Positions 7,401 to 64,000 are shown, counted from the first letter of the stretch. The stretch is 64,000 nucleotides of DNA from Deltaproteobacteria bacterium (GCA_016874775.1 VGTJ01000005.1:5232-69231); one strand, 5' to 3'. A program made the numbers and translations. The notes: generated by a model from the sequence alone, not told the origin.

Positions 7401-9472
7401 ACGGCTTGTGCTACCGACTGACGTGGCAGAAAAAGGCGCGTAGCACCGAGCGGCGTGAGGACAAACGGTCTGCCGACCGTCGCACTGGTACTTGGTTGAT
7501 TGTAGCGCATCCTGACGCACTCGAACTCGCCGAGCCCCTGCGCGACGTCGGACGGTGTTCTTTCCGCGTTGTGCTGGGTAGTGCGGATCAACATGTGACT
7601 GCTAAGAAGCGGTTGATAAATTCCCTTGAGGCTGTTCCAACAGGCGAAACCGTGCTTCGACAAGCTCAGTACGAACGGGAAAAGCACAGCGACGGTGTAT
7701 CTTCTTCCGTTCACCCTGAGCTTGTCGAAGGGTGGATGGCGAATTTGTCAACAGCTTCTAACACCTGGATCATCGATGCGACCAACGAGGACGAGTATCA
7801 CCATGTGCTGGAAGAAGTCATGGCTAAGACCACGATTGAAGGCGTCGCTTACCTCTGGCCTGCAGAGGTCAGACCCGAGCAGCAATTGCACGGACTGGGG
7901 GAAGAGGGTCTCATGCCAGTGGTGCGACTCGCGCGCGCGCTTGCTCGGTTCACGTCTCCACCCCGCCTGTGGCTGATCACGCAAGCGGCCACCACGGCTG
8001 GGGATGCGGCGCCACTATCTCCCTTCCCGTCACTTCTGTGGGGCATGGGCCGGTCGCTCTTCCTGGAGCACCCCGCACTGAAGGGTGGGATCGTGGATGT
8101 GAGTTCACAGCCGAGTACAAGCGAAATTCAGGCGCTGTGCCAGGAGCTACTAGATTCACAAGGAGAGGACAACATTACGCTGCGCGCGGGCAAGCGCTAT
8201 GTCGCGCGTCTGCAAACATCACTTGATGTGACAACGACGATGCCCCGACTCAAGTCCGATGGTGCTTACCTTGTCACTGGTGGTTTGGGAGCACTAGGAC
8301 TACAGGTCGCCCGTTTCCTCGCGCAACACGGAGCTGGTCAGGTGGTGCTCATGGGTCGTCGCGAGGCAACCGCGCAGGCCAAAGAGCTCGTGGACTCCCT
8401 GCAAGACCTGAACACGCACGTGGTAGTGGCGCAAGCTGATTGTACCGCTGAAGCAGAGGTACATAGGGTTCTCGACGAGATCGCGGCCAGCGGGTTCACG
8501 CTCAAAGGGGTGATCCATGCCGCTGGGGTCCTAATCCCGCGATCCGTCAGTGAACTCGACCACGAGTGTTTGCGTACTGTGGTCGCTCCCAAAGTACAGG
8601 GAGCCTGGACGTTGCACCGCGTAACCCAACAACTCACGCTCGACTTTTTTGTCTGTTTCTCGTCGGTCTCCGCTGTTTTGGGTACGGCCTTTCAAGCGCA
8701 CTATACGGCAGCGAACGCCTTTTTAGACGGCTTGGCTGAGTACCGTCGCGGCCTTGGCTTGCCCGCCCTCAGTATCAACTGGGGGCTCTGGGAAGGACGG
8801 GGAATGGTAGATGACGAGTCGGCGCGACGTGTTACGGACACTGGTATTAAAGCACTGTCGTCGCATACGGCACTCGCTCTGTTTGGTCGCCTCCTCAGAA
8901 CAGATCAGTCTCGAGCCGTCGTGTTGAATGCAGATTGGCAGCGCCTCAAGAGCTTGTATGAAGTTCGCGGCAAGCAGCCTGTGCTCGAGTTTATGGGCAG
9001 CACGATGCAGGAGGAAACGACCGCAAAGGCCTCGGCTATCCTCGACCAATTACAAGCGATGACGGTCCGCGACCGGTTCGATTTCTTGGTTTCCTATCTG
9101 CAAGAGCAAGTCAGCGCGGTGCTGTATTTTGACGCGAATACTACGCCAGATTCTAAACACGGCTTCATTGATATCGGTCTCGATTCACTGACCGCCGTAG
9201 AACTGAAGGGTCGGGTTGAGACCGAATTAGGTTGTCCTCTGTCTCCGTCAGTGATGTTCGATTATCCCAATATCGAGGCGCTCACCAGCCATTTATTGGA
9301 GCAGCTTTCAGCGATGACGCCAGAGCGCGAGAGAAAAGCCCAGAACGATAAGGGAGCGGCGGTTGTTGTGGTAGAGGAAGCCGCCGTCCAGGCTGATGTC
9401 CGGCAACTTTCTGATACCGAAATCGCGGCGTTCATCGACAACGAGCTCGCGACGCTGACCGACGAAGGATAG
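4427..9472 (+). CDS. Type I PKS module: KS-AT-KR-ACP (malonyl-type AT, no DH, giving a beta-hydroxy unit)
   Basis: N-terminal docking coil, then EPIAIIGMGCRLPG. The KS carries DTACSSSLV and HGTGTSLGD. The AT carries GHSVGEY and VSHAFHSDLM (malonyl). The KR carries AYLVTGGLGALGL, HAAGVL and QAHYTAANAFLD with the catalytic Tyr intact. The ACP carries GLDSLTAVELK. The protein ends with a docking tail. Confidence 0.95.
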   Translation: MSATPSQQPTLSPTKRALQALRAVRSKLEALEQAQKEPIAIIGMGCRLPGDIETPEAFWELLREGRDAIAEIPASRWDVGHYYDPDVAVPGKMITRQGGFLQRIDEFDPHFFGIAPREAMSMDPQQHLLLEVCWEALENAGVVPADLKGSRTGVFVGICNQDYSTLLMSRDETAIDAYMTTGLAHSVAAGRLAYSLGLQGPCLAVDTACSSSLVSVHLASQSLRNRECDFAIAGGVNLILCPETSINFSKNRMLAPDGRCKTFAATANGFGRGEGCGLIVLKRLSDVVPSQDQVLALIRGSAINQDGASSGLTVPNGPAQQSVIREALKNAGLSPDQINYLEAHGTGTSLGDPIEMGALSAVFGPTRQPQEPLIVGSVKTNLGHLEGAAGISGLMKLVLALRHEEIPAHLHFTAPSPHIPWDTMPIVVPSQARAWPAGSKPRLAGVSSFGFSGTNAHVILEEAPWVSKREAKAEPVEIYTEPVLERPLHILTLTARSPQALQAQAASYAAHLTDATHVSLADVCYTANTTRSVFEQRLVVVASNTEEMRSKLERFNAGHREQLVAQGDVRTTEQPRVAWLFSGQGSQYPGMGSSLYQTQPVFRRAFDECARILDPLLGRSLSALVFDQTSPDLHRTAFTQPALFALEYALAQMWLSWGVRPDAVIGHSVGEYVAACIAGVFTLEDALRLIATRGRLMQALPRNGAMVAVFTGQEQVIRAIVTLGSNVSIAAVNSSTETVVSGERTAVQRLVEHITAMGIRTQELSVSHAFHSDLMEPMLAEYEQVVRGVSLSLPRIRLVSNLTGEVVSQQVTEPTYWCRHLRKPVLFAAGLATLRQHGLQALVEMGPHPVLVGMARSQVLNQASSPALYLPSLRKGQQDWMVLAHSLTDLYLAGVPIDWTGFDAPYQRHRTALPTYPFQRKRYWFTENATSRRQSSVPTSPLVSLLQEGDAEALAGHLQASGELTAEEVKCLPKLTELLIRQHHQQPQEEQNGLCYRLTWQKKARSTERREDKRSADRRTGTWLIVAHPDALELAEPLRDVGRCSFRVVLGSADQHVTAKKRLINSLEAVPTGETVLRQAQYEREKHSDGVSSSVHPELVEGWMANLSTASNTWIIDATNEDEYHHVLEEVMAKTTIEGVAYLWPAEVRPEQQLHGLGEEGLMPVVRLARALARFTSPPRLWLITQAATTAGDAAPLSPFPSLLWGMGRSLFLEHPALKGGIVDVSSQPSTSEIQALCQELLDSQGEDNITLRAGKRYVARLQTSLDVTTTMPRLKSDGAYLVTGGLGALGLQVARFLAQHGAGQVVLMGRREATAQAKELVDSLQDLNTHVVVAQADCTAEAEVHRVLDEIAASGFTLKGVIHAAGVLIPRSVSELDHECLRTVVAPKVQGAWTLHRVTQQLTLDFFVCFSSVSAVLGTAFQAHYTAANAFLDGLAEYRRGLGLPALSINWGLWEGRGMVDDESARRVTDTGIKALSSHTALALFGRLLRTDQSRAVVLNADWQRLKSLYEVRGKQPVLEFMGSTMQEETTAKASAILDQLQAMTVRDRFDFLVSYLQEQVSAVLYFDANTTPDSKHGFIDIGLDSLTAVELKGRVETELGCPLSPSVMFDYPNIEALTSHLLEQLSAMTPERERKAQNDKGAAVVVVEEAAVQADVRQLSDTEIAAFIDNELATLTDEG

Positions 9473-9476
9473 CAGC

Positions 9477-12400
9477 ATGGCAATGAAGGACTCTGGCGAA
9501 CTGACCCCCCTGCAGAAGGCGTTTGTTGCCATCAAGCAACTGCGTGGCAAGGTCGAACGTCTTGAACAGGCAGACACTGAGCCGATCGCGATTATCGGCA
9601 TGAGCTGTCGCGTGCCTGGGGCCAATGATCCAGAATCGTTTTGGCAGCTGATTCGCAACGGCGAGGATATGGTCACTACTGTCCCGCGTGAGCGCTGGGA
9701 TATTGAGGCCTATTATCACCCAGAACCCGGACGGCCTGGGAAGACATATACCCGGCATGGGGGATTCCTCAGTGGCGTGGACCGTTTCGATGCGGCGTTC
9801 TTTGGCATCTCCGCGCGCGAAGCTGAGGGCATGGACCCGCAACAACGCCTGCTCTTGGAAGTCGCCTGGGAAGCGCTCGAACATGCGGGATTGGTTCCCG
9901 CCCACCTCGCAGGAAGTGCCACAGGAGTCTTTGTTGGAGTCACTGCGGGCGACTACGCTATGCTGCAGGTCGAACAGGCAGATCAGAATCAGACCCATCC
10001 CTATTTCAATACCGGAACGCCCTTGAACGCTTGTGCAGGTCGGCTGTCCTATATCTTGGGTTTGCAGGGTCCCTGCATGGCGGTTGATACTGCCTGCTCT
10101 TCTTCGCTCTCCGCCATTCATCTGGCCTGTATGAGCCTACGCGCCGGGGAGTGCGATCAGGTGCTCGCCGGTGGGGTCAATCTCATCCTCACTCCCAGAG
10201 TCTTTGTCACGTTGTCAGCGGCTGGTATGATGGCGCCCGACGGGCGCTGCAAGACCTTCGACGCCACCGCCAACGGGTATGTCCGCGCTGAAGGCTGCGG
10301 TATTGTGGTGCTCAAGCGTTACAGCGATGCGCAAGCCGCAGGGGATCGTGTCCTCGCTTTGATTCGCGGTTCGGCGGTGAACCAGGATGGGGCGAGCAGC
10401 GGATTTACCGCGCCAAACGGCGTGGCCCAACAAAAATTGCTCTGCCAGGCTCTCGGCAAAGCGAAGGTCGCACCGGCAGAGATCGACTATGTGGAAGCGC
10501 ACGGGACGGGAACCGCGCTGGGTGATCTGATCGAGACCCAGGCATTGGGTACTGTCCTGGGACAAGCTGAAGCCAGACTGCACCCGCTGTTAGTGGGATC
10601 GGTCAAGTCTAATATCGGCCACCTGGAGTCGGCAGCGGGTGTCGCGGGCCTCATCAAACTGGTGCAGGCGTTGCGATATGAGGAGCTCCCGCCCACGCTT
10701 CATCTCACACAGCCAAACCCCGACGTCGCCTGGGAGACACTGCAGGTGAAGCCAGTGATTGAACTAACCCCGTGGCCTCGGGGTCAGAAACGCCGCGTGG
10801 CTGGGCTCAGTTCATTTGGTGCGACCGGCAGTAACGCACACCTGATTCTTGAAGAAGCCCCGCCGAGCCTGCCGCAGCGTCCAGAAGTCGACCGCCCCAT
10901 GCATATTTTGACGCTGTCAGCCAAGTCGCAATCGGCGTTGTTGGAGTTAGCCGGTGACTACGAACACTTGCTCGTGCAAGAGACATCGCCAGCGCTTGCC
11001 GATGTCTGTTTCACTGCCAATAGTAGTCGAACTCACTTTAAGTGGCGCGTCGCTCTGGGTGCTGCCGATAAGGAACAAGCACGCGCACAGCTTGCTGCCT
11101 TTAGTGCTGGCCGATCGGTTCCTGGACTGCTGCTTGGTGGTGAACCGCCAGCGAAACCTCTACGCCCTGCGTGGCTGTTCACCGGACAAGGTGCGCTCTA
11201 TCCCGGTATGGGACGTGAGCTATATGAAGTGCACTCTGGTTTTCGCCGCGCAATAGACGGCTGTGCGGAAATCCTCGAACCCCTGCTGGAAAAGCCGCTG
11301 CAGTCCGTTCTGTACCCAAGTGCGCATAGAGATGACAGCGCGGACCTCCTCCAGCAGGCGGTGTATGTCCAGCCTGCACTATTTGCGCTGCAATATGCTC
11401 TGGCCAGTTTGTGGCGCTCATGGGGTGTGGAACCCGAAGCGGTGGTCGGTCACAGTCTCGGTGAATACTGCGCGGCCTGTATCGCCGGGGTCTTCAGTCT
11501 TGAAGATGGCCTGAAGCTTGTGGTTGAGCGCGCCCGTCTGATGCAAACGCTGGCTGAGACCGGCAGTATGGTCGCCGTCATGACCAGCGAAGCCCGCGTG
11601 GCGCAGGCATTGGCTCCCCATCGTCAGGATGTGAGTATCGCGGCGGTGAATGGGCCGCAAAACGTGGTCGTGTCCGGTCGGACGCCGGTGGTGCAACAGC
11701 TTGTCAGTCAGTTTCGTACGGAAGGCATTGAGACCATCCCGCTACAGGTGACCCACGCGTTTCACTCGCCGGTCATGGATCCGCTGTTAGATGCGTTTGA
11801 ACGATTTGCTGAGCAGATCGATTTTCACGCGCCAACACTGCCCCTGATCTCAAACTTGACGGGCCAACCGCTAACGCCAGGAGTGGTTCCCGATGCTGAG
11901 TATTGGCGGCGGCACTGCCGTGAGCCCGTGCAGTTCATGCAGAGTCTGTCTACCCTATTGAATCGCAACCTCAGCCTCTTTATAGAAATCGGTCCTCACC
12001 CAGTGTTAAGTCATTTAGGCAAACGCCAAGAGCCGTCGGCTGTGTGGCTCCCGTCCCTGACACGCCACAAGAGCGATTGGTCGGTGTTGCTGAGCAGTGT
12101 CGCTGAAGCATACATCCGCGGGGCGAACATTGACTGGTCTGGCTTTGACGCGCCCTTCGCCCGCAATCGTGTGTCCGTGCCAACGTATGCCTTTCAACGC
12201 ACGCCCTATTGGATTGTCAGAAAAGAATCGATTATGAAAGACAGTCAAGCGAATTCCCAAACTCCCCAGTCTGCCCAAGATAATCGGCAAACTCAACGTG
12301 AAGCCATTTTGACGCATGCACTGCAGCTAATTGCCGGAATGCTCCACGTCCACCCCTCCGAGATTGATATTCATGCGTCGTTTCTGGAAATGGGGGCTGA

Positions 12401-15400
12401 CTCGCTCGTGTTAGTCGAAGGGGTACGCACGGTTGAAGATCATTTCGGCGTCAAACTTGAGATCCGCCAATTTTTTGAAGAGATTACCACGATCGCGACC
12501 CTGGTCGATTATCTGGTTGATCGCACAACCTTCGGACTCCCTCCGTCCTCACCGGCAGTGCAGCCGACACAAGTCGCACCTCAAGCTATCGCTCCCACCA
12601 TCATAGCTCCCATCAGCACAGCACCTGTCGTAGCGCATGGCGTGGCCGCGCTTCCTCAAGTCACAACGCGAACAGGTGGAACAGCCCTGGAGCAGATTGT
12701 CCTGGCGCAGATGCAGTTGATGAGCCAGCAATTGGCTGCCTTGCAGGGAACTGCACCTGCAGTTAGTGTGCCCGCGCAGATTGCCCACAGCAGCCTGGCA
12801 GAAAACGGCGACGCGCCTGAACGATCCGCTGTTGCAGTACTAGCGCCCGCGCAGCCCGCGGCTCCAACAGAACTGCGTCAGTCGCCGAAGGTTGCTGAAG
12901 ACCGTTCCTCGCCCTTGCGAGCACTGGCGAATCCGATCACCCCAGGCCCCAAAACCACGGACCCGCGCCAGAGTGCGCATCTGGCCGCGCTCATTGAACG
13001 CTACGAGAAAAAAACTCCGAAGTCCAAAGCCCTGGCGCAAGCGTGTCGTCCAGGGCTGGCCGACAGTCGCGCCAGCGTCGGCTTTCGCTTTTCCACCAAG
13101 GAGATCCTCTATCCAATCACCGGGAGTGAGTCGCTCGGTTCGCGCTTGCGTGATGTCGATGGCAACACCTATGTCGACTTGACCATGGGATTCGGCGTGC
13201 TGCTGTTTGGTAGCCGCCCCGAGTTTATGAACGGCGTCGTTGAAGCGGAAGTCCAGCGTGGGTTCCAACTCGGTCCACGGTCAGACGTGATGGCAGAGGT
13301 CACATCCCTGTTTACTGAGCTGACTGGGCACGACCGTGTCGCGTTTACCAACTCTGGCACTGAAGCCGTCATGATTGCCTTGCGACTGGCGCGCACTGCC
13401 ACTGGTCGCTCGAAGATTGCGTTGTTTGAGGGATCATACCATGGACACTCCGATGGCACCCTCGCCAAGACTGTGCGCGTGAACGGCGAACTGCGGTCCG
13501 AGCCGGTGGCACCCGGCATACCGCCCAACGTCGCCAAAGACGTTCTCGTGCTTGAATACGGTACGGCGGAAACGCTGGAGACTCTGCGCGCCCACGCCCA
13601 TGAACTCGCGGCGATTCTGGTGGAACCAGTGCAGAGTCGACGTCTGGACTTTCAACCGGTTGACTTCTTACGCCAACTGCGCGCGCTGACCGAGGAGTTG
13701 GGTACCGCGCTGATCTTTGACGAAATGATTTGCGGGTTCCGTGCCCACCAGGGCGGTGCTCAGGGTCTCTTTGGCATCCAGGCGGATATCGCGACCTACG
13801 GGAAGATCCTCGGCGGTGGCATGCCGATCGGCGCAGTGGCGGGAAAAGGTCGCTTCTTGGACGGCATCGATGGCGGCGTGTGGCAGTATGGTGATAACTC
13901 TTATCCACGCGCCACTCGCACCTATTTTGGTGGGACGTTCTGCCAGCATCCCTTTTCGATGGCAGCCTGCCGAGCCACACTGCGTTACCTCAAAGCGCAG
14001 GGCCCCGGCCTTCAAGAACGGCTCAATCAACGCACAGCCGAACTCGCTGAGACGCTCAATGCCTATTTCCTTACAGAGGAATTGCCCCTGCGCGTCTCTT
14101 ACTTTTCCTCTGCCTTTCGCTTTGAGTTTTCCGGTAACCTCGAATTGCTCTATTACCACCTGTTAGAGAAGGGAGTGTACATCTGGGAGTGGCGCAATTG
14201 TTTCCTGTCAACCGCTCACACCGATGAGGACATCGCACAGTTCATTCAGGCAGTGAAAGACAGCCTTGAGGAGATGCGGCACGGTGGGTTCCTACCTGAG
14301 CGACGTTCCAGGCATCAGCCTTCGGGGCCCGATGGCAATGGGCACCACGCGACGAACGGTGTAGGGGTGCGTCGGGGGCAGACAACACCGACCCCGCTCC
14401 ATAGCAAAACTGTACGTTCCGAAGACCCGCGCGGTTTCTGGTATCGACCCAATTCCAAACTGAGCCATCGTGAGACGGTTGTTGATCACCAACCGTTAGT
14501 GCGGCAAACTGGTCAACAGGGTCAACGAGCACTCACTTTTGGTATATCGTACTTCGGCCCGTACTCTGCATCCTTTAGCGACGATAAGTATGACCTGCTG
14601 CTGGAGAGCGCACGGTATGCGGACAGCGAGGGATTTGCTGCTCTCTGGGTGCCTGAGCGGCATTTCCACGAGTTTGGCGGCTTCTCGCCTAATCCTTCGG
14701 TGCTGGCCGCTGCGCTCGCTAGAGAAACCACACGTATCCACTTACGCGCGGGCAGCGTGGTGTTGCCGCTGCATCACCCGATTCGCGTGGCTGAGGAATG
14801 GGCACTAGTCGATAATCTGTCTGGCGGTCGCGCAGGCATCGCCTTCGCCTCTGGCTGGCATGCTAATGATTTTGTCTTTGCTCCCGAGGCGTATGGACAA
14901 CATCGCGAGTTGACGTTCCAGGGTGTAGAAACCGTGCGCCAGTTGTGGCGCGGAGAAACGATCACGCAGCGCGGCGGACAAGAAAGTAAAGTCGACGTCA
15001 GTATTTATCCCCGGCCCAAACAAGCCAGCCTCCCCGCTTGGCTCACCATCGTCAACAACCCCGATACCTATCGTAAAGCCGGTGAGCTGGGGGTTGGGGT
15101 GCTGACCAACCTGATGGGCCAATCGTTGGATGACCTGGCTGCCAATATCGCCGTGTACCGACGAGCCTTAGCCGAACATGGCCACGACCCAGCGGCAGGA
15201 CACGTGACTGTCCTGATCCATACCTATTTGGCGGCTGACGCTAGCGAGGCTATCGAGACCGCACGCCAGCCCATGTGTGACTATCTCTTGTCCAGTATCG
15301 GGCTCTTCCAGAAGATGGCACAGAGCGAGGGCAAGGCGCTCAATATCGACCGTTTGACCCAAGCGGACAAAACTTTCCTGGTACAAAGCGCGTATGAGAA

Positions 15401-18400
15401 ATACGTCGCATCGAGCGCACTTATCGGCTCGCCGCAAAGCTGCGCGCCGACTGTCGAGCGGCTCATTGATATCGGCGTCAACGAGCTCGCGTGCTTTGTC
15501 GATTTTGGCGTTGCGCGCGAAGCGGTGTTGGCAGGACTTCCGTATCTCAACACGCTCAGACAGCAGTACCAGACACACAGTGAGAGTTTATCCAAGCTCG
15601 CAGCCAACTCGCAGGAACCCGTCTCCATTCCCTTGAGTGAAGCCCAACAACAGTTGTGGATTTTGGCGCAGCTCAGTAAGGACGGGAGTCGTGCCTACAA
15701 CGACCCAGCGGCGTTGCTACTGCGCGGGTCGCTCGATCACGACGCCTTGCGGCATGCCTTGCAGCAGGTGGTTACCCGTCATGAGTCCCTGCGCACGACG
15801 TTCGACAAAAGCGGAGAACTGCAAGTGATTCATCCGCCGCAGGCGGTGGAATTAGCGTGTATTGATCTCTCGGCAGAGACAGAGCCTGAGGTTCGCCTTG
15901 GGGAATGGCTTGCAGAGCATACCCAGCAGGCTTTTGACTTTGAGAATGGGCCACTCTTTTCAGCTACTGTATTCAGGCTCGAAGCAGAACGACATGCGCT
16001 GGTCCTGTCAGCTCACCACATTGTCAGCGACGGTCCATCAATGGCGCTTATCCTCAACGAACTGCTGACGCTGTATGGCGCAGCGCGCGGTGGACAGGCT
16101 GCCGAACTGGCCACGCCGACTCAGTATCGCGATTTTCTTAGTTGGCAACAGGAACAAAGAGACACCGACGCTATGGCCGGACACGAGCGCTATTGGCACC
16201 AGCAATTCGCCAGTCCCATTCCAGCGTTGGATCTGCCGAGCGACCGCGTGCGTCCGCCGGTCATGACCTATAACGGTGCCCGTGCGTCGTGTGAGATCGA
16301 CTCCACCCTGCTGCAGGCGATACGAAAAGTGGGCGCTGCCCATGGCTGTACGCCGTACATGGTGTTTCTCGCTGCCTATTCTGCCCTCATGCACCGGCTC
16401 AGCGGTCAGGAACAAGTGGTGATTGGCGCGCCGTACACTGGCCGGGCATTGGCAGGAGGCAACTCGTTGGTCGGCTACTGCATTCACCTGCTGCCGATTG
16501 TCAGCACGGCAAATACGGAGGTCACGTTCGCCGACCACCTGCGCTATATCCGCGGTACCTTATTGAACGCGTACGAACATCAAGACTATCCCTTTGCGCG
16601 CTTGGTCAATACACTGAATATGAAGCGCGATAGCAGCCGTCCACCGCTGCTCAGCACTATTTTCAATCTCGAACGTCAGCCCGAGCTGCAAAAAACAGCC
16701 GGGCTGCAAGTTGAGGTCTATCCCCAGCCGATTAGCTTTACCCGTGTCGATCTCACCCTGACTGTCTTCTTGCAAGAGCGCAAGGCAAGGCTGGAATGCG
16801 ATTACAATACTGATTTGTTTGATGCAACGACGATTCAACGCTGGCTTGAGCACTATGTGACGTTACTAGCATCGGCTGCCGCTCAGCCGCAGCAAGCGGT
16901 GGCAACACTCCCGTTATTAACTGACGCGACACGTCGCCACCAGCTTGAGGAATGGAACGTCACTGACCCGGCGGCCTCAGCCGCCTGCTTCCACAAGCTG
17001 TGGGAAGCGCGGGTTGCCCAACATCCAGACCGAATCGCGCTCGAAGAGGACGGCGAACACGGCAGATGCTTCACTTATAGTGATCTGAACCAACGGGCCA
17101 ACCAACTGGCGCACTATCTGCGACGCATGGGAGTTGGACCCGATCAACGCGTCGGGGTGTGTCTGCAGCGCTCATGGCAACTCATGGTCGCGATGTTAGC
17201 CACGCTCAAAGCCGGTGGGGCTTATGTCCCGTTGGACCCCTCGTATCCGAGTGTACGTTTGAGCCTGATGCAGTCGGATGCGCGCATTACCGTTTTGCTC
17301 ACCCAAGAGACGTTCCTCGCGCAATTGACCGATCGCCCCAACCAGGTGTGTTGTCTCGATCGCGAGTGGGGGAAAATCGCGAGCGAATCAGCGGCCAATC
17401 CCGACATCAACGTCAGGCCCGCTAACCTCGCCTATGTGATCTACACCTCAGGTTCAACCGGCAAACCCAAGGGCGTGATGATTTCCCATCATGGCTTGGT
17501 GAACTACCTTACATGGGCCGTGCAGGCGTATGCGGTGCAAGAAGAAGAGGGTGCACCGGTGCTGGGTTCCATCGGCTTCGACGCCACAGTGACCAGTTTG
17601 TTCGTGCCGCTCCTGGCTGGCGGTAAGGTCATCTTGTTGACCGAGGGTGGAGAGCTTGAAGCGCTGGCCTCTCTGCACCGCTCGGCGCGTACGTTCAGTT
17701 TCATCAAACTCACTCCAGCTCATCTGGAGATTTTTAACACGATGGTACCAGGCCAACCGCCAGCCGATCTGACGCGCTTCTTAGTGCTTGGCGGCGAAGC
17801 CCTATCCGGGGCTGCCATACACCCGTGGCTTCAGCATGGCGCAACGCGGATCGTCAATGAATATGGTCCGACCGAAACAGTGGTGGGATGCTGCACGTAC
17901 GAGCCCGAACATCCTTGCTCCGGCATGGTGCCCATCGGTCGTCCGATCCGCGGCACCCGTTTGCATATTCTCGATAAACACTCACAGATCGTTCCTCCCG
18001 GAGTTCCTGGGGAACTCTACATCGGTGGGATCGGGTTGGCGCGTGGCTATCTCGACAAACCCGACCTCACCGCTGGTGTCTTTATACCGGACCCATTCGC
18101 CGGAACCGGCGACGGAGAGCCGGGCGCTCGTCTCTACAAAACCGGCGATCGCGCCTGTTACATGCCTGATGGTACCCTGGTCTTCCTGGGTCGCGTCGAC
18201 CGTCAGGTCAAACTCCACGGCTTTCGTATCGAGCTTGGAGAAATCGAGGCGACGCTGACCGCGCGACCGGAGGTGCACGAGGCTGTGGTGCTGCTCCGCG
18301 AGGACCAGCCTGGTCATCCGCGCTTGGTTGCCTATGTGCGTCCAGCCCATACTCCATCGGCGGAGAAGTTTGCCGTCGAGAAACTCCGCGCCGAACTCAA

Positions 18401-18878
18401 AAGTCTGCTGCCACACTATATGGTGCCAGCGGTCATTGTCCCTCTAGAGGAAATGCCGCTGACCACCAATGGTAAGATTGATCACCAGGCGTTACCGATC
18501 CCGGACCAGGTCCGCCCTGAGCAAGCAACCGCGTACGTAGCGCCGCGCACGAACGTTGAACAACAAATCGTTGGCGTCTGGCAAGAGGTGCTCAGTGTGG
18601 ACAAGGTGGGGATTCATGACAACTTTTTTGATCTGGGCGGTACCTCGCTTCTGTTGCTGCAAGCGGCAAACAAGCTTGAACGTCTCTTGCATCATGACGA
18701 TGGGGTGATCGAGATCTTCAAATACCCAACGATAGCATCCCTCGCTCACTACTTGAGCAGCGACAAGGGAGCAGCCCAACCCGAGTACAGCCAGATTCGC
18801 GACCGTATCGGCCAACAACAGGCGGCTGCTCGTATGCAGGCCCTGCGCAACAAAGCCCAACGTGGAATAGGGAGCTGA
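9477..18878 (+). CDS. Hybrid PKS/NRPS: KS-AT-ACP-aminotransferase(AMT)-luciferase-like monooxygenase(LLM)-C-A-PCP
   Basis: KS carries IAIIGMSCRVPG, DTACSSSLSAIHLA and HGTGTALGD. AT carries GHSLGEY and HAFHSPVM. ACP carries LEMGADSLVLVEG. The AMT is a class III PLP aminotransferase fold with YGKILGGGMPIGAVAG. The LLM carries FGISYFGP and ALWVPERHFHEFGG. The C domain carries HHIVSDG. The A domain carries YTSGSTGKPKGV, NEYGPTE, YKTGD and NGKIDHQAL. The PCP carries FFDLGGTSLL. Confidence 0.95.
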   Translation: MAMKDSGELTPLQKAFVAIKQLRGKVERLEQADTEPIAIIGMSCRVPGANDPESFWQLIRNGEDMVTTVPRERWDIEAYYHPEPGRPGKTYTRHGGFLSGVDRFDAAFFGISAREAEGMDPQQRLLLEVAWEALEHAGLVPAHLAGSATGVFVGVTAGDYAMLQVEQADQNQTHPYFNTGTPLNACAGRLSYILGLQGPCMAVDTACSSSLSAIHLACMSLRAGECDQVLAGGVNLILTPRVFVTLSAAGMMAPDGRCKTFDATANGYVRAEGCGIVVLKRYSDAQAAGDRVLALIRGSAVNQDGASSGFTAPNGVAQQKLLCQALGKAKVAPAEIDYVEAHGTGTALGDLIETQALGTVLGQAEARLHPLLVGSVKSNIGHLESAAGVAGLIKLVQALRYEELPPTLHLTQPNPDVAWETLQVKPVIELTPWPRGQKRRVAGLSSFGATGSNAHLILEEAPPSLPQRPEVDRPMHILTLSAKSQSALLELAGDYEHLLVQETSPALADVCFTANSSRTHFKWRVALGAADKEQARAQLAAFSAGRSVPGLLLGGEPPAKPLRPAWLFTGQGALYPGMGRELYEVHSGFRRAIDGCAEILEPLLEKPLQSVLYPSAHRDDSADLLQQAVYVQPALFALQYALASLWRSWGVEPEAVVGHSLGEYCAACIAGVFSLEDGLKLVVERARLMQTLAETGSMVAVMTSEARVAQALAPHRQDVSIAAVNGPQNVVVSGRTPVVQQLVSQFRTEGIETIPLQVTHAFHSPVMDPLLDAFERFAEQIDFHAPTLPLISNLTGQPLTPGVVPDAEYWRRHCREPVQFMQSLSTLLNRNLSLFIEIGPHPVLSHLGKRQEPSAVWLPSLTRHKSDWSVLLSSVAEAYIRGANIDWSGFDAPFARNRVSVPTYAFQRTPYWIVRKESIMKDSQANSQTPQSAQDNRQTQREAILTHALQLIAGMLHVHPSEIDIHASFLEMGADSLVLVEGVRTVEDHFGVKLEIRQFFEEITTIATLVDYLVDRTTFGLPPSSPAVQPTQVAPQAIAPTIIAPISTAPVVAHGVAALPQVTTRTGGTALEQIVLAQMQLMSQQLAALQGTAPAVSVPAQIAHSSLAENGDAPERSAVAVLAPAQPAAPTELRQSPKVAEDRSSPLRALANPITPGPKTTDPRQSAHLAALIERYEKKTPKSKALAQACRPGLADSRASVGFRFSTKEILYPITGSESLGSRLRDVDGNTYVDLTMGFGVLLFGSRPEFMNGVVEAEVQRGFQLGPRSDVMAEVTSLFTELTGHDRVAFTNSGTEAVMIALRLARTATGRSKIALFEGSYHGHSDGTLAKTVRVNGELRSEPVAPGIPPNVAKDVLVLEYGTAETLETLRAHAHELAAILVEPVQSRRLDFQPVDFLRQLRALTEELGTALIFDEMICGFRAHQGGAQGLFGIQADIATYGKILGGGMPIGAVAGKGRFLDGIDGGVWQYGDNSYPRATRTYFGGTFCQHPFSMAACRATLRYLKAQGPGLQERLNQRTAELAETLNAYFLTEELPLRVSYFSSAFRFEFSGNLELLYYHLLEKGVYIWEWRNCFLSTAHTDEDIAQFIQAVKDSLEEMRHGGFLPERRSRHQPSGPDGNGHHATNGVGVRRGQTTPTPLHSKTVRSEDPRGFWYRPNSKLSHRETVVDHQPLVRQTGQQGQRALTFGISYFGPYSASFSDDKYDLLLESARYADSEGFAALWVPERHFHEFGGFSPNPSVLAAALARETTRIHLRAGSVVLPLHHPIRVAEEWALVDNLSGGRAGIAFASGWHANDFVFAPEAYGQHRELTFQGVETVRQLWRGETITQRGGQESKVDVSIYPRPKQASLPAWLTIVNNPDTYRKAGELGVGVLTNLMGQSLDDLAANIAVYRRALAEHGHDPAAGHVTVLIHTYLAADASEAIETARQPMCDYLLSSIGLFQKMAQSEGKALNIDRLTQADKTFLVQSAYEKYVASSALIGSPQSCAPTVERLIDIGVNELACFVDFGVAREAVLAGLPYLNTLRQQYQTHSESLSKLAANSQEPVSIPLSEAQQQLWILAQLSKDGSRAYNDPAALLLRGSLDHDALRHALQQVVTRHESLRTTFDKSGELQVIHPPQAVELACIDLSAETEPEVRLGEWLAEHTQQAFDFENGPLFSATVFRLEAERHALVLSAHHIVSDGPSMALILNELLTLYGAARGGQAAELATPTQYRDFLSWQQEQRDTDAMAGHERYWHQQFASPIPALDLPSDRVRPPVMTYNGARASCEIDSTLLQAIRKVGAAHGCTPYMVFLAAYSALMHRLSGQEQVVIGAPYTGRALAGGNSLVGYCIHLLPIVSTANTEVTFADHLRYIRGTLLNAYEHQDYPFARLVNTLNMKRDSSRPPLLSTIFNLERQPELQKTAGLQVEVYPQPISFTRVDLTLTVFLQERKARLECDYNTDLFDATTIQRWLEHYVTLLASAAAQPQQAVATLPLLTDATRRHQLEEWNVTDPAASAACFHKLWEARVAQHPDRIALEEDGEHGRCFTYSDLNQRANQLAHYLRRMGVGPDQRVGVCLQRSWQLMVAMLATLKAGGAYVPLDPSYPSVRLSLMQSDARITVLLTQETFLAQLTDRPNQVCCLDREWGKIASESAANPDINVRPANLAYVIYTSGSTGKPKGVMISHHGLVNYLTWAVQAYAVQEEEGAPVLGSIGFDATVTSLFVPLLAGGKVILLTEGGELEALASLHRSARTFSFIKLTPAHLEIFNTMVPGQPPADLTRFLVLGGEALSGAAIHPWLQHGATRIVNEYGPTETVVGCCTYEPEHPCSGMVPIGRPIRGTRLHILDKHSQIVPPGVPGELYIGGIGLARGYLDKPDLTAGVFIPDPFAGTGDGEPGARLYKTGDRACYMPDGTLVFLGRVDRQVKLHGFRIELGEIEATLTARPEVHEAVVLLREDQPGHPRLVAYVRPAHTPSAEKFAVEKLRAELKSLLPHYMVPAVIVPLEEMPLTTNGKIDHQALPIPDQVRPEQATAYVAPRTNVEQQIVGVWQEVLSVDKVGIHDNFFDLGGTSLLLLQAANKLERLLHHDDGVIEIFKYPTIASLAHYLSSDKGAAQPEYSQIRDRIGQQQAAARMQALRNKAQRGIGS
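12530..12930 (+). other. Pro/Ala/Gln-rich low-complexity interdomain linker between the ACP and the AMT
   Basis: The translated stretch reads PPSSPAVQPTQVAPQAIAPTIIAPISTAPVVAHGVAALPQVTT...APAVSVPAQIAHSS...LAPAQPAAPTEL. It has no catalytic motifs. Confidence 0.5.
12950..14300 (+). other. Embedded PLP-dependent aminotransferase (AMT) domain, glutamate-1-semialdehyde aminomutase-like
   Basis: ILYPITGSESLGSRLRDVDGNTYVDLTMGFGVLLFG, FTNSGTEAVMIALRLAR and a PLP-lysine region DIATYGKILGGGMP. The domain sits directly after an ACP and before a C domain, as in the beta-amino-fatty-acid-forming modules of iturin/mycosubtilin and microginin-type synthetases. Confidence 0.85.
14520..15570 (+). other. Luciferase-like flavin monooxygenase (LLM) domain embedded between the AMT and the C domain
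   Basis: LTFGISYFGPYS...SEGFAALWVPERHFHEFGGFSPNP...GRAGIAFASGWHANDF are characteristic of the LLM / natural-product-associated luciferase-like monooxygenase fold. The domain is about 350 aa. Confidence 0.78.
15620..18760 (+). other. NRPS module C-A-PCP at the C-terminus of the hybrid protein (amino acid 1 of the peptide)
   Basis: The C domain carries PLSEAQQQLWIL and AHHIVSDGPS. The A domain carries LAYVIYTSGSTGKPKGV, FDATVTS (A4), NEYGPTE, GELYIGGIGLARGY, YKTGD, GRVDRQVKLHGFRIELGEIE and NGKIDHQALP. The PCP carries DNFFDLGGTSLL. Confidence 0.85.
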
Positions 18879-18882
18879 GGTT

Positions 18883-21800
18883 ATGAGTCATGAAGAGCCG
18901 CGAGTTGAACAAGACGCCATTGCCATTATCGGCATGGCCGCGCGTATGCCGGGCGCTGCGAACCTGGATGCCTTCTGGCGTAACCTGCGTGACGGCGTCG
19001 AATCGATCTCGCACTTCTCTGAAGAGGAGTTACTGGAATCGGGTCTCGACCTGGCGACGATCAGACAGCCCAATTTTATTCCAGCCAAAGGGATCATGGC
19101 GGACGTCGAGCAGTTCGATGCGTCGTTTTTTGGTATTGCTCCCAGGGAAGCTGAGATCATGGACCCACAGCACCGCTTACTCATGGAGTGTGCGTGGGAG
19201 GTGATGGAACACGCCGGGTATGATTCCGAGAGCTATGCTGGCCGCATCGCCGTCTATACCAGCACCGGCATGAATACCTATCTGCCGGTGAACATCCTCT
19301 CCAATCCAGGTCTGGCCGAGAGTGTCGGCGGCTTTCAACTGTCGATTTATAACGACAAGGATTTTGTTCCCACCCGCATCGCCTACAGCATGAATCTCAA
19401 AGGACCAGGGGTTGATATTGGCACCGCCTGTTCCTCGTCTCTGGTGAGCCTGCACTTTGCCTGTCAGAACCTGCTCACCTATCAGTGTGATATGGCGATT
19501 GTTGGTGCCGTGTCGGTCCATTTCCCCGTGAAGGTCGGGCATCTCTGTGAGGAAGGGGCAGCCTACTCGCCCGATGGTCACTGTCGTCCCTTCGACGCGA
19601 CCCGCAGTGGCTTGATTGATGGCAATGGCATGGGTGCGGTGGTACTCAAGCGCCTCTCGGACGCCCTTGCTGATGGCGACTATATTCACGCAGTGATTAA
19701 AGGGACAGCCATCAACAATGACGGCTCGTTGAAAGTCGGCTACGCGGCCCCCAGTATCGATGGACAAGCCAGAGTTATCATTGAGGCCCAGGCGCTGGCT
19801 GGGTGTCCGCCTGACACTATTAGTTATATCGAGGCCCATGGCACAGCCACACCGTTGGGTGATCCGATTGAAGTGAAAGCGTTGACCCAGGCGTTTCGCG
19901 TAGGCACGCAGCGCAAGGGATTCTGTGGCCTCGGTTCAGTCAAGTCCAATATTGGCCATGTCGATAAAGCCGCGGGGCTGGCCGGTCTGATCAAAACCAC
20001 GCTGGCACTTAAGCATGACGTGATTCCACCCAGTCTGCATTTCACCGCGCCGAATCCGAAGCTCAACCTGCCCGATAGCCCCTTCCACGTGGTCAACAAG
20101 TTGCAGCCCTGGCCCAAAAACGCCGACACGCCTCGGCGCGCGGGCATTAGTTCGTTTGGTGTCGGTGGCACCAATGCACATGCAGTGATAGAGGAAGCGC
20201 CGCCGGTGGCGCCGAGTTCGCCCTCCCGTCCGGTGCAGGTCCTGATGGTCTCAGCTAAAACCGAGGCCGCGGTGGAGGCTGCCACAGAGAATCTGGCAAC
20301 ATTCCTGGAACAAGCGCCGGACATGAACCTCAGCGATGTGTGCTACACCTTGCAGCAGGGCCGCCGCCCGTTTGTCTATCGACGAGCGGTCGTTTGCACC
20401 TCGGGGACCGAGGGTGTGAAGGCGCTGCGCGCAAGTCAATTCGCCCGTGTCGCCGATGCAACCAATCGCGGCGTGGTTTTTCTCTTCCCTGGTCAAGGCA
20501 GCCAGTATCCAGGCATGGGGCACGATCTCTACCGTCATGAGCCGGTCTTCCGCGACCAGGTGGATCAGTGTGCGCATTATCTAGAACCCGAGCTACAGTT
20601 GGATATCCGCACGCTGTTGTTCCCAGCCGCAGAAGAGTACGAAGAGGCGGCTACGCAATTAGCCCAGACCGCGTTGACGCAACCAGCCCTGTTCACCATT
20701 GAGTACGCCTTGGCGCAACTGTGGATGAGTTGGGGCGTGCAGCCGCGTGCGATGATCGGCCATAGCCTGGGAGAATATGTCGCCGCGTGCATCGCGGGCG
20801 TCTTTTCCTTGCAAGATGCGCTGACGTTGATTACCGCGCGCGGACGCATGATGCAGAAGCTACCATCGGGCGCGATGTTGGCGGTTCCCTTGGCCGAAAA
20901 AGAGCTACAGCCCTTGCTAGGAGCGAAAATTGACCTGGCCGCGGTGAACGGCCCACAACTCTGTGTCGTCTCTGGCCCCGAGCGAGAGATAGCTGCATTG
21001 GACGAGCGATTAACCAAGCAGGGACTCTCCTGTCGCCTTCTCCATACCTCCCATGCCTTTCATTCCGCCATGATGGAGCCGATGCTCCAACCCTTTACCA
21101 GCCTGGTGCGCAGCATCACGCTTAAGCCACCGCAAAGCCCCTATCTCTCGAATTTGACCGGGCAATGGATTACCGAAGCACAGGCCACCCAGCCAGAGTA
21201 TTGGGCCCAGCACCTGCGCCATACAGTGCGCTTCGCCGCTGGCATCTCTTGTCTACTCGATTCTGAGCCGTCGGTGCTGCTGGAGGTCGGGCCAGGACGC
21301 ACTTTGTGTGACCTGGCCTCTCAAGTGCAAAGCAAGCATCGTGCGCAGTGTTTGCCCAGCTTGCCGCACGCGCGGGAGAAACGCGGCGCGCAACAGTTCG
21401 TCTTGCAGGCTCTGGCCGAGTTATGGATGACCGGTGCGAATATGGATTGGGCAGGCTTTTACCAACACGAACGGCGTCAGCGCGTCCCCTTGCCGACCTA
21501 TCCTTTTCAGCGGCGCCGCTACTGGATTGATCCAGCCAAGCAGGTCACGATGGGAACGGCAGAAAGCACTGCAACCGGTAAGAAACCCGATGTCGCTGAC
21601 TGGTTCTACCTGCCCTCGTGGAAGGCAACGCTGACACCCGTGGCGCAGCTCGAAGCGATGCCCGCAGACACATGCTGGCTGGTCTTTGCTGACGAACATG
21701 GACTGGCTGCGGCGCTTGCGGCTGAACTGGTGCGTGTCGGTCACTCCGTGGTCAGCGTACGTAAGGGCGCTGGCTTTGCGCGCAAGGATGCACAGACCTA

Positions 21801-23568
21801 TACGGTGAACCCGACCGAGCCCGCTGATTTTGTGACTCTGTGTAAGGACCTGCACGATCGCCAAGTGCTGCCGCAACGGATTCTCTACTTGTGGGGCACC
21901 ACGAGCGACAACCGCACTGTGAGAGACCCGCACGATATCGGTGACTACTGTGGCGGTCTCTTGTCCATAGTCCAAGCGTTTACGCAGCAATCATCGGCGC
22001 AGCCGGTTGAGCTCCTCGTCGTCGCTAATCAGATGCGTGATGTCAGCGGGGAAACATCCATTGATCCAGCCAAGGCCGCCCTGCTTGGTCCGCTCAGCAC
22101 GATTCCTTGGGAGCATCCTGGTTTCACTTGTCGTGCGATCGACATTCCTTCGCCGGGCTTGCGAACCTGGCAGTTACCGAGTCTGGTCACTCGCCTGATG
22201 TCTGAACTCGGAGGACCTGCAGCGGAGCGGATTGTTGCTTTGCGGGCCGGTCAGCGTTGGATCGCCGATCTTGACCCGGTCCGCTTGGAAATCCCAAGCG
22301 CGGAAAAAAACCTACGAGGCTCCGGTCTGCTCCGCGACGGTGGGGTGTATGTGATTACTGGCGGTCTCTATACCATCGGGTTGCAGTTGGCCCGCCAGAT
22401 AGCGACTATGGTGCACGCCAAGCTGGTCCTGACCGCGTGCGGTCCAACGACCGGCAATGGATCGCAGCCGTCAGCCGCCGCGCTTGCTCCTATCGCGCCG
22501 CAGCTTCAGGAACTCGAATCGTTGGGCTGTGAGGTCCTACCGCTCCACCTTGAGCGCTTCGATACCCTTCACCTCGAAGACGCATTGCGTCACGCCGAAC
22601 GTCGCTTTGGCCGTATCTCTGGGGTGATTCATGCCGAGGACATGAGTAGTGCGCGCCTCTTCAGTTTCATTCAAGATCTCGATCCCACTGCCCGCGACCA
22701 CTACTGGAACGAGCAGCGCCAGACACTCGTCGCTCTCACAGAGTGTTTGCAAGAACGAGAGGTAAGTTTTTGCATGGTGATGTCTTCCCTCGCTTCTGAA
22801 GTCGGCGGGGTAGGGCAGGTCGCGCATACCACTGCCAGTGTGTATCTCGATGCGTTCACCCAGTGGCACCATCAACAGACGGCGTGCCCGTTGATGGTAG
22901 TGAACTGGGATATGTGGAACACCGAAGAAGACCGGGTACCGGCGCACTCGGGCCTCGCCACGCTCGCCATGACCCCCGCAGAAGGGGCTCACGCGTTCCA
23001 GCGCATGCTGTATGCCGGCACCTTCGCACGTATCCTTGTCTCCACCACCGATCCGCGCTTGCGCCACGAGGTGATCCGCACCATGCACGCAAAGCACGCG
23101 ACGCTCGGCCCGACGGAAGAGAGCAACGGACTGACTGGTGCCACGAGAGACCATGCACGTCCTGACCTACTGACTCCCTATGCGCAGCCGCGGAGCGACG
23201 ATGAGACCGTCATGGCTGAGCTGTGGCAAGAGTGTTTGGGCATAGACCGGATTGGCATTCACGACAATTTCTTTGATTTGGGCGGTCATTCCCTCCTAGC
23301 TACAAAACTTGTGTCACGCTTACAGCAGACCTTCCAGGTACGTATGGAATTGGACATTTTTTTCTCCAGTCCGACGATTGCCGAGTTGACCGAGGCGCTA
23401 CTGCATCAACAGTTAGAGCAGAATGGCGGAGATCAGATGACCCACTTACTCGACCGACTTGAAGAGCTAACCGAGGAAGAGGCCGAGGCTCTGCTGAACA
23501 GTAACAGCCTGCCCACGGACCTGCTTGCTGCTCTTGCCGACGAAATCAGTGACGACCGCAATCAGTAG
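18883..23568 (+). CDS. Type I PKS module accepting an aminoacyl chain from the upstream NRPS module: KS-AT-KR0(degenerate)-ACP
   Basis: The KS is a hybrid type (AIAIIGMAARMPGA, GTACSSSLVSLHFACQNL, HGTATPLGD). The AT carries GHSLGEY and HAFHSAMM. The KR-like region carries the Rossmann motif VYVITGGLYTIGLQLA but has lost its catalytic motifs. The ACP carries FFDLGGHSLLATKL. The protein ends with a docking tail. Confidence 0.93.
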   Translation: MSHEEPRVEQDAIAIIGMAARMPGAANLDAFWRNLRDGVESISHFSEEELLESGLDLATIRQPNFIPAKGIMADVEQFDASFFGIAPREAEIMDPQHRLLMECAWEVMEHAGYDSESYAGRIAVYTSTGMNTYLPVNILSNPGLAESVGGFQLSIYNDKDFVPTRIAYSMNLKGPGVDIGTACSSSLVSLHFACQNLLTYQCDMAIVGAVSVHFPVKVGHLCEEGAAYSPDGHCRPFDATRSGLIDGNGMGAVVLKRLSDALADGDYIHAVIKGTAINNDGSLKVGYAAPSIDGQARVIIEAQALAGCPPDTISYIEAHGTATPLGDPIEVKALTQAFRVGTQRKGFCGLGSVKSNIGHVDKAAGLAGLIKTTLALKHDVIPPSLHFTAPNPKLNLPDSPFHVVNKLQPWPKNADTPRRAGISSFGVGGTNAHAVIEEAPPVAPSSPSRPVQVLMVSAKTEAAVEAATENLATFLEQAPDMNLSDVCYTLQQGRRPFVYRRAVVCTSGTEGVKALRASQFARVADATNRGVVFLFPGQGSQYPGMGHDLYRHEPVFRDQVDQCAHYLEPELQLDIRTLLFPAAEEYEEAATQLAQTALTQPALFTIEYALAQLWMSWGVQPRAMIGHSLGEYVAACIAGVFSLQDALTLITARGRMMQKLPSGAMLAVPLAEKELQPLLGAKIDLAAVNGPQLCVVSGPEREIAALDERLTKQGLSCRLLHTSHAFHSAMMEPMLQPFTSLVRSITLKPPQSPYLSNLTGQWITEAQATQPEYWAQHLRHTVRFAAGISCLLDSEPSVLLEVGPGRTLCDLASQVQSKHRAQCLPSLPHAREKRGAQQFVLQALAELWMTGANMDWAGFYQHERRQRVPLPTYPFQRRRYWIDPAKQVTMGTAESTATGKKPDVADWFYLPSWKATLTPVAQLEAMPADTCWLVFADEHGLAAALAAELVRVGHSVVSVRKGAGFARKDAQTYTVNPTEPADFVTLCKDLHDRQVLPQRILYLWGTTSDNRTVRDPHDIGDYCGGLLSIVQAFTQQSSAQPVELLVVANQMRDVSGETSIDPAKAALLGPLSTIPWEHPGFTCRAIDIPSPGLRTWQLPSLVTRLMSELGGPAAERIVALRAGQRWIADLDPVRLEIPSAEKNLRGSGLLRDGGVYVITGGLYTIGLQLARQIATMVHAKLVLTACGPTTGNGSQPSAAALAPIAPQLQELESLGCEVLPLHLERFDTLHLEDALRHAERRFGRISGVIHAEDMSSARLFSFIQDLDPTARDHYWNEQRQTLVALTECLQEREVSFCMVMSSLASEVGGVGQVAHTTASVYLDAFTQWHHQQTACPLMVVNWDMWNTEEDRVPAHSGLATLAMTPAEGAHAFQRMLYAGTFARILVSTTDPRLRHEVIRTMHAKHATLGPTEESNGLTGATRDHARPDLLTPYAQPRSDDETVMAELWQECLGIDRIGIHDNFFDLGGHSLLATKLVSRLQQTFQVRMELDIFFSSPTIAELTEALLHQQLEQNGGDQMTHLLDRLEELTEEEAEALLNSNSLPTDLLAALADEISDDRNQ
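21560..22960 (+). other. Degenerate KR (KR0): structural fold retained, catalytic residues lost
   Basis: Compared with the intact homologous KR in the 36029-44842 protein (IHAAGS ... TAKVHGLYVL ... TAYSAANSFIDAF), this copy reads IHAEDMS ... NEQRQTLVAL ... VAHTTASVYLDAF. HAAG has become HAED, the Lys is Gln/Arg, the Tyr is His and the Asn is Ser. Confidence 0.7.
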
Positions 23569-46485: not shown

Positions 46486-46489
46486 CGGT

Positions 46490-58785: not shown

Positions 58786-58806
58786 TGGTTGGCTCTCCGT
58801 TGTGAA

Positions 58807-59850: not shown

Positions 59851-59894
59851 GTAAACCTATCTCTTTTCCTTTGATTCGTTGCTCAGTTTGACCG

Positions 59895-61523: not shown

Positions 61524-61735
61524 AGCGGATACTTATCGGCGGCGCAGAGCATGTTCTACAGCTTCCACCACAGAGGTTGATACGCCCGATGGAAAGCGTC
61601 GGCGAACTTCCCCTCTCGACTCTTCCATCAGTCGTCGTAACATCCCGTCACTTACGCATCGAACGAGGCAAGAGATTTCATAGCACATCCCCTCTATGTT
61701 GCCACTGCAATTGGAAGAACGGGCATACCAGCAAC

Positions 61736-63765: not shown

Positions 63766-64000
63766 TGTCTCTTGACCTCTATAGATTTCGTCATGCTGCC
63801 CCCGCCGTCCGCAGGCGTACCCACCCAGGCTAAAACCACAGGGTGCGTATTCCCAAGAATGGCCATGACAGTCTTGGGCATTTAGGAACCTGAAGACTAT
63901 CCTATTAACTTTGTGAGGTCGCTTTCTCGGATTTTGTTTCTGACCCACCCCTACACACTTTTCTTCCTTGGCGCATGTGAGCGGAAGGATCCTCCACGGT

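Follow-up and report, generated by a model that had tools for sequence, protein, structure and literature searches.

Pairs of an aminotransferase (AMT) and a luciferase-like monooxygenase (LLM) domain within one assembly line have already been published for the puwainaphycins, the microginins, ralsolamycin, the tychonamide and floridanemamide pathways and the microsclerodermins. PuwE of the puwainaphycin synthetase comprises one polyketide synthase (PKS) module, an aminotransferase, a monooxygenase and one nonribosomal peptide synthetase (NRPS) module, and the iturin-family synthetases carry an AMT, their products being without a 2-hydroxyl (PMC4219810). RmyA, the ralsolamycin/ralstonin synthetase encoded on the megaplasmid of Ralstonia solanacearum, pairs AMT domains with LLMs (PMC4989320), the annotation of micD in the microginin cluster mic includes an LLM domain (PMC9594780), and in the microsclerodermin (msc) pathway, whose description is taken here from a review, the first NRPS module, which is equipped with aminotransferase and monooxygenase domains, uses asparagine as its extending residue (PMC6163206). 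The pair analysed here lies in a stretch of 64,000 nucleotides from a Deltaproteobacteria bacterium (GCA_016874775.1 VGTJ01000005.1:5232-69231), the whole of which is called the window below, where both domains are carried by a single hybrid PKS/NRPS protein and are likely to build a 3-amino-2-hydroxyacyl unit on the acyl carrier protein (ACP) of their own module.

The protein is encoded by a single uninterrupted open reading frame (ORF) at 9477..18878 (+), contains 3133 aa and corresponds to NCBI MBM4254541.1, from a 69.5-kb contig of a metagenome-assembled genome (MAG) labelled 'Deltaproteobacteria bacterium'. The identical 3133-aa protein was observed on contigs of four independent data sets (JGI 3300020193, SRR7990526, SRR7053297 and ERR14789947), and the AMT-LLM fusion is therefore not an assembly chimera. 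Pfam placed the PKS part at aa 35-410 (KS), 566-869 (AT) and 949-1013 (ACP), the tailoring domains at aa 1214-1591 (Aminotran_3, E=2e-46) and 1703-2002 (Bac_luciferase, E=5e-49), and the NRPS part at aa 2051-2488 (Condensation) and 2510-2859 (AMP-binding), followed by a second PP-binding domain. An earlier note on this DNA had given the order as KS-AT-ACP-AMT-LLM-C-A-PCP and the interval of interest as 12950-15570, and both proved correct, the interval bracketing exactly the AMT (12993-14300) and the LLM (14538-15560). The features of the gene are:

9477..18878, + strand: hybrid PKS/NRPS gene, KS-AT-ACP-AMT-LLM-C-A(Asn)-PCP, 3133 aa
9579..10706, + strand: KS, with the DTACSS cysteine and both histidine motifs
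11172..12083, + strand: AT, with GHSLGE and HAFH motifs, indicating malonyl-CoA
12321..12515, + strand: ACP, attachment Ser976 in GADSL at nt 12402-12404
12684..12749, + strand: helix-like motif ALEQIVLAQMQLMSQQLAALQG within the Ala/Pro-rich ACP-to-AMT linker
12993..14300, + strand: AMT, a MycA-type class-III aminotransferase dependent on pyridoxal phosphate (PLP), from MycA homology and the motifs FDEMICGFR and YGK(1443)ILGGG
14301..14537, + strand: AMT-to-LLM linker, rich in Arg, Gly, Ser and Pro, about 80-90 aa
14538..15560, + strand: LLM, a monooxygenase of the MupA/Atu3671 family dependent on flavin mononucleotide (FMN), TIGR04020, nearest solved relative the PuwE Ox domain
15627..16940, + strand: condensation domain, canonical HHIVSDG motif at nt 16014-16034
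17004..18485, + strand: adenylation domain, specificity code DATKVGEVGK
18636..18653, + strand: PCP attachment motif GGTS(3057)LL

As the cysteine and both histidine motifs are kept, the KS is an elongating KS, and the code DATKVGEVGK of the adenylation domain that follows the LLM is one which we take to be the classical asparagine code. The linker motif ALEQIVLAQMQLMSQQLAALQG was also found to be kept in the aligned proteobacterial, acidobacterial, cyanobacterial, Chloroflexota and Sorangium loci and to be weak in two Streptomyces loci; it may serve for docking or dimerisation.

The nearest structures of the AMT are those of the MycA aminotransferase domain (6KFM, 6KFR and 6KFU, E=1.4e-144), and the MycA sequence lines up with its YGK-ILGGG and FDE-x-x-x-GFR motifs. 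Lys1443 is presumably the PLP lysine, an assignment made from the motif of glutamate-1-semialdehyde aminomutase, the alignment itself showing motif conservation only. When aligned with its homologues, translated from the genome loci that had been fetched, the AMT retains 123 of 125 conserved columns. It stands between the ACP of a module in which the beta-carbon stays a ketone and a C domain bearing HHIVSDG, which agrees with the MycA-type ACP-AMT-C logic that the earlier note had proposed for it.

The LLM matched NCBIfam TIGR04020, the natural-product subfamily of these enzymes, over all 341 model positions (1-341) with 507.7 bits, where the curated cut-off is 244.45 bits; the earlier note had proposed a search against the NRPS-associated LLM subfamily. 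Its nearest solved structure is PDB 6KET, deposited as 'PuwE' (E=2.6e-146, 490 bits, 59% identity over 345 residues), in line with the puwainaphycin-type domain arrangement that had also been suggested; ordinary luciferase, by comparison, scored about 61 bits, and 3,6-diketocamphane monooxygenase, a Baeyer-Villiger enzyme of the LLM type, 32 bits. A literature search on the PDB codes 6KET, 6KFM, 6KFR and 6KFU found no paper describing the structures. The expectation that the conserved residues of the LLM are kept was confirmed for 75 of the 77 columns that are conserved at >=95% among 76 relatives, columns taken by proxy to represent the cofactor and the active site; the two deviations lie at domain positions 151 (E in place of G) and 271 (N in place of D). 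At E-values of 1e-144 and 3e-146 to solved structures a chance match is excluded for the AMT and the LLM, no internal similarity between the two was found by BLASTP, and both look like intact, functional family members. The RmyA LLM, compared by tblastn only, is 58-59% identical to that of the window.

A neighbour-joining tree was built from PuwE and 75 LLMs of the fetched loci (including those of Floridaenema and Sorangium), a set without MupA, OocM, CalD, MndB and the pederin-type domains. In this tree the window domain joins first the proteobacterial loci L004 and L005 and then an acidobacterial and Acidimicrobiia set, and the whole group falls inside an AMT-associated clade that also holds the PuwE and Floridaenema domains. 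The phylogeny that the earlier note had called for, with pederin and oocydin LLMs included, is thus realised for the PuwE-containing part. The note's reading, which a grouping with Baeyer-Villiger LLMs would have refuted, is favoured by the clustering of the LLM with AMT-associated LLMs of 3-amino-2-hydroxy pathways and by its low diketocamphane monooxygenase score.

The protein search detected 1924 relatives at E<=1e-10, and most of the top matches combine PF00202 and PF00296, many of them also PF00668. In the genome scan, which covered one genome per species (GTDB representatives) and did not include the window's own genome, 174 relatives were detected and 80 loci were kept, the best locus being 68% identical to the window. 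The core order KS-AT-(ACP)-AMT-LLM-C-A is present in about 65 of the 80 fetched loci and in at least six phyla, with loci from Proteobacteria, Acidobacteriota, Actinomycetota (about 45 of them Streptomyces/Kitasatospora), Cyanobacteria, Myxococcota and Chloroflexota. Since PuwE and these loci share the domain order, the AMT-LLM arrangement is known and not new. No evidence was found for or against the production of bestatin- or amastatin-like dipeptides by the Streptomyces clade, and the literature search on bestatin biosynthesis was empty.

One locus carries the same module as a single 2705-aa protein (L043, Niveispirillum sp. MAG, NZ_JAGOGJ010000022.1, 6554-14668), with KS and AMT each 78% identical to those of the window and the same Asn code; it is cleanly without the LLM and its linkers (window aa ~1621-2047), and the flanks align residue for residue. 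Judged from this locus, the LLM behaves as an optional tailoring insert. TIGR04020-type LLMs without an adjacent AMT were also observed, as KS-AT-LLM-C-A or C-LLM-C, in Micromonospora (L075, L082 and L083) and in Pyrinomonadaceae, Cystobacter and Archangium (L076-L081); the latter form a separate branch of the tree, and the Micromonospora ones lie inside the AMT-associated actinomycete clade.

The chemistry available to the pair is set by its module, which is without KR, DH and ER, only about 80 residues separating AT and ACP (Pfam), and by the AT, which like every AT of the cluster carries the malonyl-type HAFH motif. Because the module has no KR, the chain on ACP Ser976 is a 3-oxoacyl chain, and because the AT is malonyl-specific, C2 of the ACP-bound chain is unsubstituted; a malonyl-derived C2 carries no extender substituent, and therefore any 2-hydroxyl must be added later. 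We consider it likely that the AMT-LLM pair is a cis-acting unit turning this ACP-bound 3-oxoacyl polyketide into a 3-amino-2-hydroxyacyl thioester. In the proposed mechanism the LLM would hydroxylate C2 using O2 and FMNH2 from a flavin reductase encoded elsewhere, while the 3-keto group activates C2; the PLP-dependent AMT would next transaminate C3, the C domain would couple the resulting acyl thioester to Asn-S-PCP, and the free 3-amino group would be saved for a final macrolactamisation catalysed by the thioesterase (TE) domain.

By analogy with MupA, which needs a beta-keto substrate, hydroxylation probably precedes transamination, that is, in the reverse of the domain order; the alpha-hydroxylating role given in the earlier note is supported, with this correction to the sequence of events. 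MupA reconstituted in vitro alpha-hydroxylates a beta-keto thioester only on its cognate ACP and is inactive on the beta-hydroxy analogue and on the free pantetheine substrate; FMNH2 was supplied to it by the added reductase Fre, the mupirocin cluster encoding no reductase, and OocM is likewise reported as an alpha-hydroxylase (PMC10952193).

Several points weigh against assigning 2-hydroxylation to the LLM before transamination. No biochemical assay of any in-line AMT-associated LLM was found in the accessible literature, and both the function and the order of reactions are inferred, the function from the correlation with products and from the trans-acting relatives MupA and OocM, and the order for domains that run AMT then LLM. 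No flavin reductase gene was seen among the Pfam-annotated genes of the window. In the original msc proposal, as given in a review, the monooxygenase (MOX) oxidises a beta-hydroxyl to the beta-keto group and the hydroxyls come from hydroxymalonate extenders (PMC6163206). Hydroxymalonate or methoxymalonate as the source of the 2-hydroxyl was considered for the window and rejected, all ATs carrying HAFH and no extender-unit biosynthesis gene being present among the Pfam hits.

Transamination first, in which the AMT would make a 3-aminoacyl-S-ACP and the LLM would then hydroxylate C2 of the beta-amino thioester, matches the order of the domains, and the AMT of the Niveispirillum locus sits in an LLM-less module, so that this type of AMT accepts a non-hydroxylated 3-oxo substrate. 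We nevertheless regard it as rather unlikely, as the requirement of MupA, a TIGR04020 member, for the beta-keto group and its failure on the beta-hydroxy analogue (PMC10952193) fit a mechanism in which an enolisable C2 attacks the flavin hydroperoxide, and a beta-ammonium thioester would, by our own reasoning, be far less activated at C2. That the LLM is catalytically dead and only a structural spacer is very improbable: two of the 77 highly conserved columns differ (positions 151 and 271) and a close homologue (L043) functions without the domain, yet the other 75 columns are retained, the match to the model spans all 341 positions with a score twice the cut-off, and the frame shows no disruption. 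There is hardly any likelihood that the LLM re-oxidises a 3-hydroxyl to the 3-ketone for the AMT, the older msc proposal relayed in the review text (PMC6163206), because such a step is needless where the KR-less module already leaves a 3-oxo group; the MscD-like protein of Sorangium (899 aa) is likewise without a KR match, the assayed family members MupA and OocM are hydroxylases (PMC10952193), and MycA-type modules transaminate without any LLM (PMC4219810). Baeyer-Villiger insertion or oxidative chain shortening, as proposed for CalD and MndB, LLMs in trans-AT PKSs for which chain shortening by alpha-hydroxylation together with an oxidation of the Baeyer-Villiger type is suggested (PMC8739492), can be set aside almost entirely, since it would destroy the 3-ketone substrate of an AMT that co-occurs with the LLM in about 65 of 80 loci, the characterised AMT-LLM products retain an intact 3-amino-2-hydroxy carbon chain, and the window LLM scores 32 bits against diketocamphane monooxygenase and 490 bits against PuwE.

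On its predicted modules the whole cluster, in a window of 58% G+C, is a microsclerodermin-type assembly line, and not a microginin/puwainaphycin-type one as the earlier note had it; the substrate of the pair is accordingly not the fatty acid named there but a reduced, methyl-branched polyketide chain. The microsclerodermin synthetase, with MscD/MscF, of Jahnella sp. MSr9139 and of Sorangium cellulosum So ce38 was reportedly described by Hoffmann et al. 2013. The remaining genes of the cluster are:

18..4430, + strand: PKS C-terminal part, DH-cMT-ER-KR-ACP, the full protein being 2585 aa with KS-AT-DH-cMT-ER-KR-ACP
4427..9472, + strand: preceding PKS module KS-AT(malonyl)-KR-ACP, predicted source of the C5-hydroxyl
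18883..23568, + strand: KS-AT-KR-ACP, MscG-like, extending Asn by one malonate to the aminopyrrolidone precursor
23607..36032, + strand: trimodular NRPS, C-A(Gly-like)+N-MT-PCP, C-A(DVGLVGEIWK)-PCP-E, C-A(Gly-like)-PCP
36029..44842, + strand: MscI-like C-A(Gly-like)-PCP-KS-AT-KR-ACP-TE, for a unit of the 4-amino-3-hydroxybutyric acid (GABOB) type and release by cyclisation
44931..45542, - strand: MbtH-like protein with a C-terminal extension
45664..46662, - strand: type II thioesterase
46490..57514, - strand: loading and first PKS module, acyl-AMP ligase-KR-MT-ACP-KS-AT-DH-KR-ACP
57625..58785, - strand: amidohydrolase, PF04909, 70% identical to V5UVQ4 of Jahnella sp. MSr9139
59895..61523, - strand: ABC exporter, NCBI name 'cyclic peptide export ABC transporter'

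The adenylation domain with the code DILAFGLVW- and an embedded methyltransferase is Gly-like with N-methylation, giving sarcosine (Sar); the code DVGLVGEIWK, at the tryptophan (Trp) position of the ring order and followed by an epimerisation domain, could not be assigned to a residue; DILALGMVWK is Gly-like, and so is DILALGLI-K of the module fused to KS-AT-KR-ACP-TE. The predicted order of units is the beta-amino acid, Asn + C2, Sar, a D-residue, Gly, Gly + C2 (reduced) and ring closure. The microsclerodermin ring has 23 members and is built from Gly, a modified Trp, Sar, 3-aminopyrrolidone-4-acetic acid, an omega-aromatic 3-amino-2,4,5-trihydroxy acid and GABOB (PMC12559470); the predicted order agrees with it position for position, the D-residue at the Trp place being unassigned.

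UniProt V5UVQ4 of Jahnella sp. MSr9139, a 'putative amidohydrolase', shares 70% identity with the window's amidohydrolase, to which the proteins of two Sorangium strains are 69-70% identical; V5UVQ4 is taken to be MscE, because MSr9139 is among the strains in which the msc cluster was identified (PMC6163206). In Sorangium sp. So ce1128 (L019) the genes run KS-AT-KR-ACP, KS-AT of 899 aa, amidohydrolase, ACP-AMT-LLM-C-A(Asn code)-PCP of 2281 aa and KS-AT-KR-ACP, in agreement with the published gene names mscC-D-E-F-G. Eight loci (L004, L005, L006, L007, L008, L016, L019 and L025) have in common the Asn code and the PKS module after it. Microsclerodermin-like modules were observed among these loci in Alphaproteobacteria, Acidobacteriota and an Acidimicrobiia MAG, and MscE-like amidohydrolases, 72-73% identical, in Methylobacter tundripaludum (related proteins listed: P0145-P0149). 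As read from such predicted modules, the pathway type is not confined to myxobacteria and has relatives well beyond them.

The acid reaching the C domain is predicted to be 3-amino-2,5-dihydroxy-6-methyl with a 7-methylene and an 8,9-double bond, the 2-hydroxyl coming from the LLM, the 3-amino group from the AMT, the 5-hydroxyl from the KR and the 6-methyl from the C-methyltransferase (cMT); no source for the 4-hydroxyl of the microsclerodermins was found among the cluster modules. It is conceivable, although doubtful, that the LLM hydroxylates both carbons flanking the ketone, C2 and C4, before the AMT acts, yielding the 2,4-dihydroxy pattern without hydroxymalonate. Such double hydroxylation fits because all ATs are malonyl-type and no other oxygenase domain was found, neither as a Pfam hit in the window nor among the genes called in the 2.2 kb upstream of ORF1 in L084; if it were true, an uncultured freshwater bacterium would be the source of a new microsclerodermin congener, with a 6-methyl group, encoded in the window.

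Other observations concern the remaining genes of the window. The minus-strand PKS loading region (52115-57514) is unusual in that it consists of an acyl-AMP ligase (aa 218-611), KR (814-1195), MT (1325-1465) and ACP (1711-1773), and its class-I methyltransferase (aa 1325-1465) has weak PRMT5-like matches. The MbtH-like protein (44931-45542, minus strand) bears a C-terminal extension of about 150 aa with a weak PF02312 (CBF_beta) match (E=6e-6), and in the Nostoc locus L009 each of its two parts finds a match of its own, the hits lying on one strand with about 400 nt between them. The type II thioesterase ORF (45664-46662, minus strand) overlaps the end of the PKS gene (46490-57514, minus strand) by 173 nt and its Pfam match starts at residue 106, so that the true start codon is probably further downstream. 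An SPFH/Band-7 protein adjoins the cyclic-peptide ABC exporter (58807-61523, minus strand); a Band7 protein and an ABC transporter are likewise named in the figure legend of the palmerolide cluster (PMC8739492). From about 0.58 within the cluster, the G+C content drops beyond 58 kb (58000-64000) to about 0.50, and the end of an IS-type transposase gene (L084, 520-1197) lies about 1 kb upstream of the first PKS gene; either may hint at horizontal acquisition.

For enzymology these results have little consequence, as the AMT-LLM pairing is published and the core order widespread; the novelty is confined to this one member, a fused version of the microsclerodermin type whose source is an uncultured lake bacterium. 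A metagenomic 60-kb cluster is hereby assigned to the antifungal microsclerodermin family, and its malonyl-only ATs argue that the 2-hydroxyl of this compound family comes from the LLM and not from hydroxymalonate. The fused one-protein version and its LLM-less Niveispirillum twin represent convenient material for testing the in-line AMT-LLM pair and the order of its steps.

Among the known systems, MupA (mupirocin) and OocM (oocydin) belong to the same hidden Markov model family TIGR04020, a likeness drawn from the family and the literature and not from direct sequence comparison; they differ in being stand-alone enzymes that are recruited to trans-AT PKS bimodules with KS0, and are not fused beside an aminotransferase. 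MycA of the mycosubtilin/iturin type has the same AMT fold, likewise after the ACP and before the C domain, and its beta-amino acyl chain is also coupled to Asn, whereas it is without the LLM and the iturins are without the 2-hydroxyl (PMC4219810). RmyA differs in being initiated by a fatty acyl-AMP ligase (FAAL) and in making a lipopeptide, two AMT-LLM pairs having been described for it (ISME J paper). PuwE of Cylindrospermum alatosporum shows the same eight-domain order on one protein (PMC4219810), and the module before it also C-methylates, giving a methyl-branched chain; PuwE, however, elongates a fatty acid activated by a FAAL and joins it to Val in a cyanobacterial host, in contrast to the multi-module polyketide chain and Asn of the MAG labelled 'Deltaproteobacteria bacterium'. 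With the Sorangium locus L019 the AMT-LLM module of the window is syntenic, although the LLMs are only 57% identical and the Sorangium MscD-like KS-AT and MscF-like ACP-AMT-LLM-C-A-PCP are split, with the amidohydrolase gene between them, where the window has one fused protein of 3133 aa and the amidohydrolase elsewhere. In comparison with msc, the window cluster adds a cMT-ER module and the acyl-AMP ligase-KR-MT-ACP loader, and no halogenase was seen in it; it shares with the Jahnella and Sorangium msc clusters the AMT/MOX module with Asn and the KS-AT-KR-ACP, on the predicted order also Sar, a D-residue, Gly, and Gly + PKS with TE, together with an amidohydrolase and a type II TE.

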